A stretch of DNA of 32,000 nucleotides. Origin: Candidatus Baldrarchaeota archaeon. Lineage in GTDB: Archaea > Asgardarchaeota > Baldrarchaeia > Baldrarchaeales > DXJG01. Of the stretch, positions 25,186-30,263 are shown in pieces. Every line of letters begins with the position of its first letter. Positions within the stretch are counted from its first letter, which is position 1. The stretch covers positions 74,735 to 106,734 of the forward strand of contig DXJG01000002.1 in the NCBI GenBank assembly GCA_019056805.1. The letters are read 5' to 3'. Made by a program: the position numbers and the translations under genes. Under the pieces are notes generated by a model, which was not told the origin of the DNA, made no database searches, and saw only the letters and a list, made by a program, of their open reading frames with translations.

Positions 25186-25572
25186 TTACGTTAATATATC
25201 TAAAATTTTCCTCAAATTCACCATTATTAGTCCAAGTTGAGCTCTTGCATCGGAACTGGCAAGAGCTATAAGTGACATTGTAGGTGACGAAGCGATTATA
25301 ATATATCCCTCATCTCCAACCAGATGAAGTTCTTTAATATTTCCTTTGCCCATTTCTTTACTTAGATTATTTATTTCGTTGATAATTTTTGCAAGTTTTG
25401 CTAATATGATATCACTTGGACTTTTAGAAATGGTTTCAGAGGCAAGTACAGTTCCATCTTTAGAAATAGCAACTAAACCTTCTATAGTTGTTATTTCATC
25501 CATTAATTTTAGAAACACTTTTCTAATTCTTTCTTCACTATGCATGCCTTCCACTTCCCGCAAATAAGCCAT
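25186..25572 (-). CDS. Roadblock/LC7 domain protein (RB1), divergent from the GTPase operon
   Basis: IEGLVAISKDG.VLAS, ELGKG-like EMGKGNIKELHLVGDEGYIII, and C-terminal AQLGLIMVNL helix. Confidence 0.85.
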   Translation of the reverse strand: MAYLREVEGMHSEERIRKVFLKLMDEITTIEGLVAISKDGTVLASETISKSPSDIILAKLAKIINEINNLSKEMGKGNIKELHLVGDEGYIIIASSPTMSLIALASSDARAQLGLIMVNLRKILDILT

Positions 25573-25727
25573 ATAGATTATTACTAAGTAGTTATATTTA
25601 AATTAACCTCTCAGACATATCTCTCTTAGATCTTGTGTTTTATCAGATAATTATGATTTTTACGCTAAAGGTTTAAAAGAAAGTTGACATGATATTTGTG
25701 TAGTTATAAGCGATTAAGGGAAGTAAT

Positions 25728-26012
25728 ATGATCAGTCAAAAATGGATTAAAGATACTATAGAAAGATTAACAAGTCATGAAGGAGTAAAAGGAGTTGTAA
25801 TTACAAGCGCCGAAGGAATACCTCTAAGTTCTACTTTAAGTTCTGATGAAACGGAGAAAATAGCAGCATTTGTTACATCAATCGTAGATAAAGCAAGGAA
25901 AATAATTAACGAGTTGGGAACCGGTAAACTAAATTTTCTAACGGTCGATGCATCAAAAAAGGAGTTACTTATAGCATCTGAGAAGGATTACATTCTAATA
26001 GTCTTAAGATAG
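25728..26012 (+). CDS. Short Roadblock/LC7 protein (RB2), DYNLRB-like, lacking the C-terminal helix
   Basis: RL.S..GV.G......EGIP..ST...KAR...L.FL......E...A..KDY.LIV pattern; 94 aa. Confidence 0.88.
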   Translation: MISQKWIKDTIERLTSHEGVKGVVITSAEGIPLSSTLSSDETEKIAAFVTSIVDKARKIINELGTGKLNFLTVDASKKELLIASEKDYILIVLR

Positions 26013-26044
26013 TATTTAAATTGTAGACCGTGAAGGTGTAAATT

Positions 26045-26509
26045 ATGATAGATGTTAAACTATTTGAAAAAATCCTCAACGATCTAATAAAAAGTGAAAG
26101 TGGAATACGAAAAGTAATCCTTGTAGACAGAACAGGATTAACCATTGCACACGCTTCGAAATTTTCCTATTACCCCGTAGATATCGATGGAATAGGAGCA
26201 ATAGCAAGTGCAGTCTTCGTTGCTAGTGAAGAACAAGGAAAAAACCTAGATATAGGCGAATTAATGTTAGTAACGTCTGAATTTGAACAAGGAAAAATAT
26301 TTGCTGCAAGCTGCGGAAAAGGTGTGCTCTGTGTTATAACAGACTCCGATGTAAATATTGGAATGGTGCGTTTACTAATGAAAAGAGCAGCTACAGAACT
26401 AGGAAAGGTTCTCGATGAATTCCTCGCAGAACAGCCTACATTACCAGCGGCTGAAGATGAAACACGTGACAAATTGAAGTCAGCATTGGACAAATTAGAA
26501 GAATTTTAA
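26045..26509 (+). CDS. Roadblock/LC7 protein (RB3) with a C-terminal extension
   Basis: GIRKVILVDRTGLTIA, IGAIASAVF.ASE..G..L..G, VNIGMVRLLMKRAA, then an extra acidic linker and helix (ETRDKLKSALDKLEEF). Confidence 0.85.
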   Translation: MIDVKLFEKILNDLIKSESGIRKVILVDRTGLTIAHASKFSYYPVDIDGIGAIASAVFVASEEQGKNLDIGELMLVTSEFEQGKIFAASCGKGVLCVITDSDVNIGMVRLLMKRAATELGKVLDEFLAEQPTLPAAEDETRDKLKSALDKLEEF

Positions 26510-26531
26510 TTAGACTTGGAGCGTTACAGCA

Positions 26532-27113
26532 GTGAAAAGAGATAGAGATGGACGAGTACATTTCAAAATTGTATTTTGGGGGCCTTCCCTATCTGGAAAA
26601 ACCACTACTCTTAGATGGATATACGATAATGTTTCAGGTTTATCTAAGGGTGGATTTACCTCCATCGAAGATCCTACCGGAAGGACGTTATATTTTGATT
26701 ATACCCCCCTTTCAGCTAGTGGAGATGTAATTTTTGACGTTTATACAGTTGCAGGCCAAAAAAGACATAAACACCAACGGAAAATCATTTTACAAGGGAT
26801 CGATGGTATAATTTTTGTAGCCGATTCTGATCCATCACAACTTGATGCAAATGAGGAAAGTATGGAAGAATTAAGAGAACTACTAAAAGACCGTCTTGGA
26901 ACAGAAATTCCATTAGTAATTATGATTAACAAAAGAGATCTTCCAAATGCTGCAGATAAAGATGAAGTCCTAGAAAAACTTCATGTCACGAGTATGGATG
27001 TACCTATTTACGAGACAATCGCAACAAAAGGAATAGGTGTAAAAAGAGCTTTCCAAGCGATTGCTAGGGAAGTTTTATTAAGAAGACTTTACAATTTAAA
27101 AACAACGACATGA
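26532..27113 (+). CDS. MglA-like (Arf-related) small GTPase
   Basis: G1 GPSLSGKTT, switch I GRTLYFD, G3 YTVAGQ, ILQGIDGIIFVADS, G4 NKRD, G5 TIAT. Follows the MglA pattern (DRTLFFD/TVPGQ) rather than Ras DxxGQ. Confidence 0.9.
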   Translation: MKRDRDGRVHFKIVFWGPSLSGKTTTLRWIYDNVSGLSKGGFTSIEDPTGRTLYFDYTPLSASGDVIFDVYTVAGQKRHKHQRKIILQGIDGIIFVADSDPSQLDANEESMEELRELLKDRLGTEIPLVIMINKRDLPNAADKDEVLEKLHVTSMDVPIYETIATKGIGVKRAFQAIAREVLLRRLYNLKTTT

Positions 27114-27181
27114 AGATATAATGGTATGTTACATAGGTTTTCATAATCTAGATAAAAATCATAAAACTGGGTGAAACAACA

Positions 27182-27553
27182 ATGTCTGAAGCAAGTAGTG
27201 AAACCTTGGAAGATATACTCAAGGACCTAGAAGCCACAGTACCCGATATCGAAGCCGCTGCAATTGTCAGTATAGAAGGATTACCGATTGCTTCAGCTTT
27301 ACCCGCTGATGTAGACGAGACACGAGTTGCTGCTATGACGGCGGCTATGTTATCTTTAGGAGAAAGGGCTGCATCGGAGTTGGGAAAAGGCGAGCTGGAA
27401 CAAATATTTGTCAAGGGTAAAGAAGGGTACATAGTTGCAATGAGTGCTGGGCCCAGTGCCGTATTAACAGTGACAGCGAGAAAACAAGCGAAGTTAGGTC
27501 TAATTTTCCATTACATGAAACAAACAGCGGAGAAAATAGCAAAAATGATTTAA
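27182..27553 (+). CDS. Roadblock/LC7 (MglB-like) protein (RB4)
   Basis: DIEAAAIVSIEGLPIASAL..VDETRVAAMTAAMLSLGERAASELGKGELEQIFVKG..GY...AKLGLIF. Confidence 0.92.
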   Translation: MSEASSETLEDILKDLEATVPDIEAAAIVSIEGLPIASALPADVDETRVAAMTAAMLSLGERAASELGKGELEQIFVKGKEGYIVAMSAGPSAVLTVTARKQAKLGLIFHYMKQTAEKIAKMI

Positions 27554-27587: not shown

Positions 27588-28352
27588 ATGCGCGTCCTTG
27601 CACCGATTTACAAGCTTTATGAATGGTTATTATGGAAGCAAATAAAACAAGGAAAAAAACCTGAACATATTGGTGTAATACTAGATGGTAATAGACGGTA
27701 CGCTAAACAATTAAAACTAGAAACATGGAATGGTCATAAAATAGGGGCTGAAAAAGTAAAAGATTTTTTGGAGTGGTGTTGGGAAGCAGGTATAAGAGTT
27801 GTAACACTATATGTTTTTAGCACAGAAAATTTTAAGCGTAATAGAAAAGAAGTTGAAGAAATAATGAAACTAGCTAAACAAAAATTTGAAGAAGTCCTCA
27901 CGGATCCTCGTATCCATAAACATCAAGTGAGAATAAAAGCAATCGGTAGATTACATTTATTACCTAAGGATGTACGCGAAGTCGTAAAGAAAGCAGAAGA
28001 AGAAACTAAATCCTATAATAGGTATTTCTTAAATGTTGCAATAGGATACGGAGGACGAGCAGAAATTGTTGATGCATTCAGAAAAATTGCAAAAATGGTA
28101 GCAAAGGGAGAACTGAGCCCTGAATCCATAAATGAAAATCTTGTCGAAAAATACCTATATACGGCAGGATTACCCGATCCAGATCTTATTATTCGTACAT
28201 CCGGAGAGGAAAGACTTTCAGGTTTCCTTCTCTGGCAGTCTGCATATTCCGAATTTTACTTTTTGGATGTTTATTGGCCAGCAGTTAGAAAAATAGATTT
28301 GTGGAGAGCTATAAGAACTTACCAGCAACGCCAGCGACGTTTTGGAAAATAA
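27588..28352 (+). CDS. uppS: cis-prenyltransferase (polyprenyl diphosphate synthase)
   Basis: HIGVILDGNRRYA, FSTENFKR, IGYGGRAEI, PDLIIRTSGEERLSGFLLWQSAYSE, RRFG. Confidence 0.97.
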   Translation: MRVLAPIYKLYEWLLWKQIKQGKKPEHIGVILDGNRRYAKQLKLETWNGHKIGAEKVKDFLEWCWEAGIRVVTLYVFSTENFKRNRKEVEEIMKLAKQKFEEVLTDPRIHKHQVRIKAIGRLHLLPKDVREVVKKAEEETKSYNRYFLNVAIGYGGRAEIVDAFRKIAKMVAKGELSPESINENLVEKYLYTAGLPDPDLIIRTSGEERLSGFLLWQSAYSEFYFLDVYWPAVRKIDLWRAIRTYQQRQRRFGK

Positions 28353-29471: not shown

Positions 29472-30263
29472 TTATCTAAAGGTCAAGTAATCCTCTCCAC
29501 CTGCATATATACGTTGCAACATTGCATATAAGTCATCTAAACCTTCATTCCTTGAAGCAGAGACCGGAATAAGATCTCCAGGTCTTCCCATTTCATTTAA
29601 AATACTGAAAATTTTCAAACTCATTTCCCTTCTTAAACCAGAAAATTTCTTGTCTATAGTTTCAGCCAATTTATAGAAATCTTCCGACCAACTAAGAATT
29701 TTTTGTCTTTCCTCCTCTTCTAACAAATCCACCTTTGATAAAACATAAACTTGAGGAATTTGAAAACGATACTCCACCGAAATCCCAAGTAAAAGAACAG
29801 ATACATATCCATAAGGATTTTTAGCAAGAATAGGATCTACTAAATACACAGAAGCGACACCTTCTCCACCAAGTGCAGAAACTATAAGAGGACCAGCACT
29901 TCTATATGCAAAAAGTTCCATTTGACCCGGTGTATCCACCAGAACATACTCAGGATTTAAATCTGCAATTTCTTCTTTTATTTTATCTATTTCTCCTGTC
30001 ATCATATCAACGCTAGCAATCAATGCTCCATTCGGTCCTAAATCATAATTAAGCATAACATCCTCCACTCTAATATAATCTCTAGCATCTACATCCGGCA
30101 CGTAAGGTAAATTTCGAACACCCGGATCTAAATTAACTGTTATAACATCTAATTCGTGGTCTTTTAACCATTCAGCAAAGCTTGCTGTTAACGTTGATTT
30201 ACCGCTTCCAGCAGTTCCAATAAAATACGTGAAAAACACATCCTTCACTCTCCATTTTGACAA
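29472..30263 (-). CDS. GPN-loop GTPase
   Basis: GTAGSGKST, NLDPG, LGPNGAL (GPN loop), DTPGQMELF, SKVD. Confidence 0.93.
   Translation of the reverse strand: MSKWRVKDVFFTYFIGTAGSGKSTLTASFAEWLKDHELDVITVNLDPGVRNLPYVPDVDARDYIRVEDVMLNYDLGPNGALIASVDMMTGEIDKIKEEIADLNPEYVLVDTPGQMELFAYRSAGPLIVSALGGEGVASVYLVDPILAKNPYGYVSVLLLGISVEYRFQIPQVYVLSKVDLLEEEERQKILSWSEDFYKLAETIDKKFSGLRREMSLKIFSILNEMGRPGDLIPVSASRNEGLDDLYAMLQRIYAGGEDYLTFR

Follow-up and report, generated by a model that had tools for sequence, protein, structure and literature searches.

We analysed a stretch of 32,000 nucleotides (nt) from the genome of Candidatus Baldrarchaeota archaeon, an Asgard archaeon (contig DXJG01000002.1, positions 74,735 to 106,734), hereafter called the window, which contains a gene for a small GTPase of the MglA family together with four genes for Roadblock proteins, designated RB1 to RB4. 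In our judgement this locus probably encodes an MglA-type switch with four dedicated Roadblock subunits, which descends from an ancestral Asgard gene cluster and would operate as a multi-subunit scaffold. The system is of the known MglA/MglB kind; what is new is the set of four Roadblocks, which has a composition like that of Ragulator without being a member of it.

Organization of the locus

The elements of the cluster are as follows, with coordinates counted from the first position of the window.

25186..25572, minus strand: RB1, 128 amino acids (aa), full-length Roadblock, divergent from the other four genes
25573..25727, no strand: RB1-RB2 spacer, 155 nt, AT-rich, with a TATA-like TTTAAA(T/A) toward each gene, as read from the sequence
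25728..26012, plus strand: RB2, 94 aa, short Roadblock without C-terminal helix
26045..26509, plus strand: RB3, 154 aa, MglB-like Roadblock, immediately 5' of the GTPase gene
26459..26503, plus strand: C-terminal amphipathic helix of RB3 (residues 139-153), from the AlphaFold2 (AF2) model and orthologue conservation
26532..27113, plus strand: MglA-family GTPase, 193 aa, single G domain
27182..27553, plus strand: RB4, 123 aa, full-length, similar to CvnB and Thor-RB

A first-pass annotation of this DNA had described a divergent RB1 followed by co-oriented RB2, RB3, GTPase and RB4 genes with gaps of 32, 22 and 68 nt, respectively, and the list of open reading frames (ORFs) agrees with it exactly. 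The GTG start of the GTPase gene is in accordance with the aligned N-termini of its orthologues, and the TTTAAA(T/A) elements in the spacer are putative promoters for RB1 and RB2. All four Roadblocks pass the gathering cut-off of the Pfam model Robl_LC7 (23 bits), with scores of 37.9 (RB1), 67.0 (RB2), 44.8 (RB3) and 72.4 bits (RB4). Any two of them are merely 19-30% identical in pairwise comparison, so that they are old paralogues and a recent duplication is excluded; the earlier statement that the four differ strongly from each other is thus upheld, in length (94-154 aa) as well as in sequence. The AF2 models of RB1 and RB3, which took alignments of orthologues as input, both have the canonical Roadblock fold, and their closest structural neighbours found by Foldseek are MglB, LAMTOR2 and the solved Asgard Roadblocks.

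The host belongs to Baldrarchaeia, and the closest named records come from metagenome-assembled genomes of Baldrarchaeota (91% identity). In the source genome (1.92 Mb, 91% complete), 10 matches are Roadblock-like and 7 are small-GTPase-like. Profiles of the four Roadblock families each find one clear best gene in it, and one extra RB4-like paralogue is located outside the window (C9:209993-210403, plus strand, 145 bits to the RB4 profile).

The GTPase is an MglA

Compared with PDB sequences, the GTPase scores 138.8 bits with Thermus MglA and 133.5 bits with Myxococcus MglA, versus 45.7 bits with the best Arf. Its P-loop GPSLSGKT (residues 17-24) and its G4 motif NKRD (133-136) are invariant among 13 orthologues. 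The switch-I segment GRTLYFDY aligns with RTLFFDF of Myxococcus MglA, which carries the Arg finger (R53 in Myxococcus), and the corresponding R51 is kept in at least 90% of orthologues. In the G3 motif YTVAGQ, which aligns with YTVPGQ of the Thermus and Myxococcus proteins, Thr replaces Asp and Gln is the catalytic residue; T72, G75 and Q76 are invariant in orthologues. Since the MglA scores are far above those of Arf and the P-loop, Arg finger, G3 and NKRD motifs are all in place, the GTPase is on its sequence a true MglA with the full catalytic signature and not a Rag. In addition, Pfam and the alignment find one G domain, to which neither a Roadblock nor a longin domain is fused, and the earlier call of an MglA-like protein that lacks such a fusion, and hence is not a Rag, is confirmed by this single gene. 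Compared with bacterial MglA, the beta2-beta3 hairpin lacks 4 residues, and the NCBIfam scan of the protein gave no MglA equivalog match.

Judged by their names, proteins orthologous to the GTPase (55-71% identity) come from nearly all Asgard classes, and in the orthologue alignment MglA has a mean column identity of 67%. Of 151 sampled Asgard genomes, 133 contain an MglA-family match at E<=1e-40, and at the genus level 51 of 52 do. The source genome also has a second MglA-like GTPase (C17:199517-200044, minus strand, 36% identity), near which lies a weakly Roadblock-like ORF of 312 aa (C17:200971-201909).

Distribution of the cluster in Asgard archaea

Gene order was studied in 133 fetched related loci, which were searched with the five window proteins. 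The arrangement RB2-RB3-MglA-RB4, with order and orientation unchanged, recurs in loci whose titles name Baldr-, Jord-, Frey-, Atabey-, Thor-, Wukong- and Promethearchaeota, as well as in additional families; in most of these cases the divergent RB1 is present too. It occurs in 51 of the 86 related loci with sufficient flank, a Thor-heavy sample whose members are not independent, and 32 of these 51 have the divergent RB1 too. The spacing in related loci is operon-like, with median gaps of 24 nt between RB2 and RB3 and 13 nt between MglA and RB4. As all five genes have same-order orthologues, at 24-76% identity, in many Asgard genomes, the arrangement is far beyond chance.

To resolve the paralogues, a tree was built from 90 Roadblock sequences labelled by gene position alone, using a quick IQ-TREE search with support from the Shimodaira-Hasegawa-like approximate likelihood ratio test (SH-aLRT). 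Position-specific clades were recovered for RB3 (98), RB2 (96) and RB1 (98), and the RB4 sequences grouped together. RB1 appears nested among RB4-like sequences, at forks too poorly resolved to give an order of duplications. The tree and the gene positions together show each Roadblock to be an orthologous family of its own that is older than the split of the Asgard classes, and judged by gene order the window carries one representative of a widespread, nearly Asgard-wide cluster of ancestral origin. Synteny across Asgard classes, which the first-pass annotation had put forward as a check, is therefore positive, the order recurring in many classes; its view that the novelty lies in this specific four-paralogue module has to be abandoned, the module being ancestral and widespread in the phylum.

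The complete 1.4-Mb genome of Odin LCB_4 (G001) presents a special form of the cluster.

964368-964712 (locus L135 1984-2328), plus strand: RB1
963879-964163 (locus L135 1501-1785), minus strand: RB2
963341-963805 (locus L135 957-1430), minus strand: RB3
962940-963308 (locus L135 559-927), minus strand: RB4

Here the three co-oriented genes are separated by gaps of 29 and 70 nt, the GTPase gene is absent and mglA is found 140 kb away. That the Roadblock genes are still clustered although mglA is so distant argues that the four behave as a unit. Reduced forms exist as well: RB3-MglA-x-RB4 in Heimdall B3, RB3-MglA only on an Odin-labelled contig (L003), RB2-MglA in some Heimdall-type families, and the GTPase alone in other families.

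Two local peculiarities may be recorded. A Loki-type locus of Promethearchaeota has an ORF of 111 aa with no Pfam match between RB1 and RB2, upstream of RB1 and on its strand (L001:2018-2350, minus strand). In genome G146 of family f9, the RB2 and RB1 genes form a co-oriented pair (C1:83082-83369 and C1:83608-83958, both on the plus strand).

The four Roadblock subunits

RB3 is the subunit most similar to MglB. Its core has the Roadblock fold a-bb-a-bbb-a, as seen from the AF2 secondary structure and the Pfam score given above. Thermus MglB is its best PDB match by sequence and also by Foldseek (3T1R, template modelling (TM) scores 0.70/0.80), and the NCBIfam model of Thermus MglB, NF052242, aligns with residues 8-151 at 42.7 bits. 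RB3 likewise matches the Pfam model MAPKK1_Int/LAMTOR3 with 31.4 bits (cut-off 25), as do 18 of 18 orthologues. In the AF2 model, the helix 139-153 is detached from the core behind a linker (129-138) whose predicted local distance difference test (pLDDT) value is below 50. The linker differs in length and sequence among orthologues, and the helix has invariant residues at L144, A147, L151 and E152, besides the nearly invariant L148. The bacterial counterpart of this helix binds MglA (PMC6785124, PMC13408092). With orthologues 58-76% identical and a mean column identity of 65%, RB3 is the most conserved Roadblock subunit; its profile has a match in 130 of the 151 Asgard genomes, and of the 72 genomes of high quality 70 have one. 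The RB3 gene stands directly 5' of mglA on the same strand, 22 nt apart here, and the two adjoin in most related loci. In a protein atlas, which provides a lead only, the clusters nearest to RB3 are from Thor and Promethearchaeota, followed by bacterial Roadblocks.

RB2 is the short form. It matches PDB entry 7F8F (Odin-RBLC7) over its full length with 91 bits, and the product of the gene at the RB2 position in Odin LCB_4 is 100% identical to 7F8F; by position and sequence, RB2 is the orthologue of Odin-RBLC7. The crystal of this protein is a homodimer without C-terminal helix, for which its authors proposed that a partner helix is bound and larger complexes are built (PMC10933270). RB2 further scores 62-67 bits with DYNLRB1/2 and fly robl, the Roadblock light chains of dynein, and 31.1 bits with the Pfam model LAMTOR5 (cut-off 27), which 18 of 20 orthologues match. 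The mean column identity of RB2 orthologues is 49%.

The RB4 profile matches 7F8M (Thor-RB) with 114 bits, 9JUE (MK-D1 Roadblock3) with 110 bits and Streptomyces CvnB5 with 68.6 bits. RB4 orthologues are 46-75% identical, with a mean column identity of 56%. We considered whether 7F8M and 9JUE are the RB4 proteins of the Thor and Loki operons themselves and rejected it: with 90 and 83 bits and about half of the residues identical, they are paralogues. The central helices of RB3 and RB4 are nearly invariant and rich in small residues in the orthologue alignments, and by analogy with the biology of PDB entry 3T12 they may correspond to the surface that carries MglA in MglB.

RB1 is the fastest-evolving subunit, the orthologues at the divergent position being 24-35% identical across classes. 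Its AF2 model (pLDDT 79.8) has the canonical a-bb-a-bbb-a topology, and the best Foldseek matches are the MK-D1 Roadblock2/3 homodimers and Thor-RB; 9JQ8 is the closest solved relative.

Neighbouring genes

The other genes of interest in the window are listed below.

27588..28352, plus strand: cis-prenyltransferase (UppS family), Pfam Prenyltransf 282 bits
23624-24997, plus strand: HypE/AIR-synthase-like gene, an ordinary neighbour, Pfam domains found on translation from 23900
29472-30263, minus strand: GPN-loop GTPase, an ordinary neighbour, ATP_bind_1 213 bits
30469-31998, minus strand: Cdc48-type AAA ATPase, an ordinary neighbour, cut at the window end

The cis-prenyltransferase gene, of the UppS/dolichol-pathway type, follows RB4 by 34 nt on the same strand and is possibly co-transcribed with it. 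Among 132 related loci, which are not independent of each other, 82 from several classes have a homologue no more than 1.5 kb downstream in the same orientation (L035, L050, L051, L048, L055, L060, L104, L112, L117, L119 and L129 are among them). The gene may be part of the operon, and this would hint at a link of the switch to lipid-carrier or envelope biosynthesis. An ATP-grasp gene recurs further 3' of RB4 in related loci, and lineage-specific genes are among the other neighbours. The long N-terminal extension of the HypE/AIR-synthase-like ORF, as listed, is probably spurious.

In the Thor-type loci (n=43), a Sec23/24-like gene is inserted between RB1 and RB2, co-oriented with RB2-RB3-MglA-RB4. 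It passes the Pfam cut-offs of Sec23_trunk (41 bits) and Sec23_BS (39.8 bits), as in Thor SMTZ1-45 (L104:590-2209, plus strand). It was tried as a general part of the module and rejected, as it lies beside RB2 in Thor-type loci only. The Pfam Sec23 model gave no match in the source genome or in most other families, and the Loki-type genes are on other contigs. Asgard Sec23-like proteins have been tested against Arf-like GTPases with gene context left aside (PMC11914678); the position of the Thor gene suggests MglA as a candidate partner GTPase of the Sec23/24-like protein.

Comparison with known systems

The cluster resembles the MglA-MglB system of Myxococcus and Thermus in having an MglA-family GTPase with the same Arg finger, TxxGQ and NKxD motifs, and the bacterial mglB-mglA pair in having, directly 5' of mglA, the gene of a Roadblock whose C-terminal helix is tethered. 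Like Myxococcus, with MglB and MglC, it has more than one Roadblock paralogue. The first-pass annotation took bacterial MglA to be controlled by an MglB homodimer alone, which is too simple, for Myxococcus also employs MglC, a second Roadblock paralogue, and the co-GAP RomY, a partner in GTPase activation (PMC7949163, PMC9481161). However, there are four anciently diverged Roadblock families here versus one or two in bacterial MglA systems, and one of the four is a short DYNLRB-like form not known there. In the G3 motif, Ala stands in place of the Pro of bacterial group 1 MglA, and unlike in the Myxococcus system, no RomR, RomX or RomY is visible at this locus. The conservon CvnA-D of actinobacteria likewise combines a GTPase of the MglA family (CvnD) with a Roadblock (CvnB), yet with one Roadblock instead of four; the sensor kinase CvnA and CvnC (DUF742) are absent from the window and from related loci.

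With Ragulator/Rag and the EGO complex of yeast, the cluster shares the association of several Roadblock subunits, full-length and short, with a small GTPase. Moreover, the matches of RB3 to LAMTOR3 and of RB2 to LAMTOR5 are above cut-off and consistent across orthologues. The Robl_LC7 scores exceed the LAMTOR scores, which places the resemblance to Ragulator at the superfamily level. Unlike in the Ragulator-Rag system, the GTPase here has no C-terminal Roadblock domain and does not come as a heterodimeric pair, and no LAMTOR1-like wrapping subunit was found among the conserved neighbours in the neighbourhoods examined. RB2 also has the same length and truncated fold as DYNLRB/LC7. To our knowledge, archaea have no dynein, and hence any helix that partners RB2 must come from another protein.

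The solved Asgard Roadblocks are close relatives of these subunits: 7F8F is the product of the RB2 position in Odin LCB_4, 7F8M and 9JUE are nearest to RB4, and 9JQ8 is nearest to RB1. Unlike the clustered proteins considered here, they were studied singly. The small GTPase genes of MK-D1 are generally outside operons with Roadblock genes (Tran et al. 2024, PMC10933270), and the conserved five-gene cluster is not described in that work. According to the preprint by Liu et al. (10.1101/2020.10.19.343400), the Asgard core genes include three Roadblock/longin families and two of small GTPases; a different operon of LAMTOR1-like, Rab-like and DENN genes is described there. In the literature accessible to us we found no paper describing the five-gene cluster, and an earlier mention is possible.

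Discussion

From the biology of MglA and MglB (PMC3199381, PMC6785124, PMC11016934, PMC13408092), the following mechanism can be proposed. MglA would alternate between its GTP and GDP states, hydrolysing GTP with its intrinsic Arg finger and Gln once these are repositioned by a Roadblock dimer platform. A platform containing RB3 would dock on MglA and set the rate of hydrolysis, and the tethered C-terminal helix of RB3 might contact MglA at a second site and influence the exchange or retention of nucleotide, as in bacterial MglB. RB4, RB2 and RB1 would add Roadblock dimers, either homo- or heterodimers, to the RB3 platform, in analogy to MglC on MglB (PMC7949163, PMC9481161) or to LAMTOR4/5 on LAMTOR2/3, and in the short RB2 dimer a groove would be left open for a partner helix. 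The outcome would be a multi-subunit scaffold which positions or gates the MglA switch. Considering MglA biology together with the conserved cis-prenyltransferase neighbour, the cellular output is probably a spatial or membrane-proximal regulation.

Several observations weigh against such a shared scaffold. The solved Asgard Roadblocks 7F8F, 7F8M, 7YH1, 9JQ8 and 9JUE are all homodimers when made alone, which means that heteromers are not required. RB1 was not found in the Heimdall-type loci that keep RB3-MglA-RB4 or RB2-MglA. In family f9, only RB2 and RB1 adjoin, and the genes for RB3, RB4 and a diverged MglA are scattered; the match to the RB3 profile in this family stops near position 133 of 155, short of the C-terminal helix. 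Families f16, f19 and f22 have an MglA-like gene and no RB3 profile match. Finally, RB3 stays below the equivalog cut-off of NF052242 (42.7 versus 200 bits), and thus it is MglB-like and not an equivalog of Thermus MglB. A predicted complex of MglA, two RB3 and GTP with RB4 as partner scored 0.51, versus 0.52 for a control with MglA replaced, which neither supports nor opposes binding.

In an alternative reading, the locus holds just a classical MglB/MglA pair: MglA is regulated by the RB3 homodimer and by nothing else, and RB1, RB2 and RB4 are independent homodimers that serve other GTPases or other partners and were co-located by ancient tandem duplication and inherited gene order. We regard this as unlikely, if well above negligible. 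The homodimeric state of the solved proteins, the RB2 orthologue included, would fit it, and other clients do exist, for the source genome has at least 7 small-GTPase-like besides its 10 Roadblock-like genes. Some lineages retain just RB3-MglA, such as the Odin-labelled L003, or scatter the genes, and an AlphaFold3 (AF3) model of a Thor MglA with a dimer of an MglB homologue, published in a 2026 study of Myxococcus, needed no further subunit (PMC13408092). However, inherited order rarely outlasts class-level divergence in archaea, whereas the four families keep both order and strand; each of them is essentially single-copy and highly conserved, and the fact that the Roadblock genes of Odin LCB_4 stayed together after mglA had left argues for joint work.

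The same Odin cluster, RB1<->RB2-RB3-RB4 with no GTPase gene, also invites the idea that the four Roadblocks are a GTPase-independent scaffold which mainly assembles other proteins, in the manner of a proto-Ragulator or a dynein-light-chain-like adaptor, of which MglA is a dispensable client. The likeness of RB2 to DYNLRB and LAMTOR5 and the score of RB3 above the LAMTOR3 cut-off agree with it, and so does family f9, where RB3 is well conserved (about 230 bits to the profile) and the top MglA-like gene, at 192 bits, has diverged. Nevertheless, we hold it to be quite improbable: an MglA orthologue is still encoded elsewhere in the Odin genome, RB3 and MglA adjoin in most lineages and are equally conserved, RB3 retains the C-terminal helix of the MglB type, and no LAMTOR1-like wrapping subunit came up among the conserved neighbours.

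Eukaryotes provide precedents for Roadblock heterodimers in LAMTOR2/3, LAMTOR4/5 and Ego2/Ego3. A strict form of the model of the first-pass annotation, in which defined heterodimers such as RB3/RB4 and RB1/RB2 divide the roles of GTPase-activating protein (GAP), guanine nucleotide exchange factor (GEF) and scaffold, could appeal to these, to the RB3 and RB4 genes flanking the GTPase gene and their similar central helices, and to RB2 and RB1 adjoining in family f9 and sharing the divergent spacer here, but it is very improbable, since every solved Asgard Roadblock is seen as a homodimer and RB1 is not found in several lineages that retain the other genes.

Going beyond the favoured reading of an MglA switch with four dedicated subunits, one may speculate that the last common ancestor of Asgard archaea had a hetero-oligomeric platform around MglA, in which an MglB/LAMTOR2-3-like pair RB3/RB4 was stacked with the short DYNLRB/LAMTOR5-like RB2 and with RB1, that both the Ragulator-type scaffolds of eukaryotes and the Roadblock light chain of dynein arose directly from this assembly, and that the Thor operon recruited the Sec23/24-like protein with MglA as its cognate switch instead of an Arf-like GTPase. 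As a whole, this scenario seems rather unlikely.

Asgard genomes encode dozens of small GTPases and of Roadblock and longin proteins, and since operons uniting their genes are generally lacking, regulators are hard to assign to their GTPases (PMC10933270). The cluster is an exception, in which one GTPase and four specific Roadblocks stay together and are highly conserved phylum-wide and the structure of one subunit has been solved, and it provides a rare matched GTPase-regulator set from the archaea most closely related to eukaryotes. Unlike Myxococcus, the Asgard cells in question are non-motile and wall-less. The set of five proteins is suited to reconstitution, which could show what role an MglA switch plays in cells without gliding motility of the Myxococcus type, and whether multi-Roadblock, Ragulator-like platforms predate eukaryotes.

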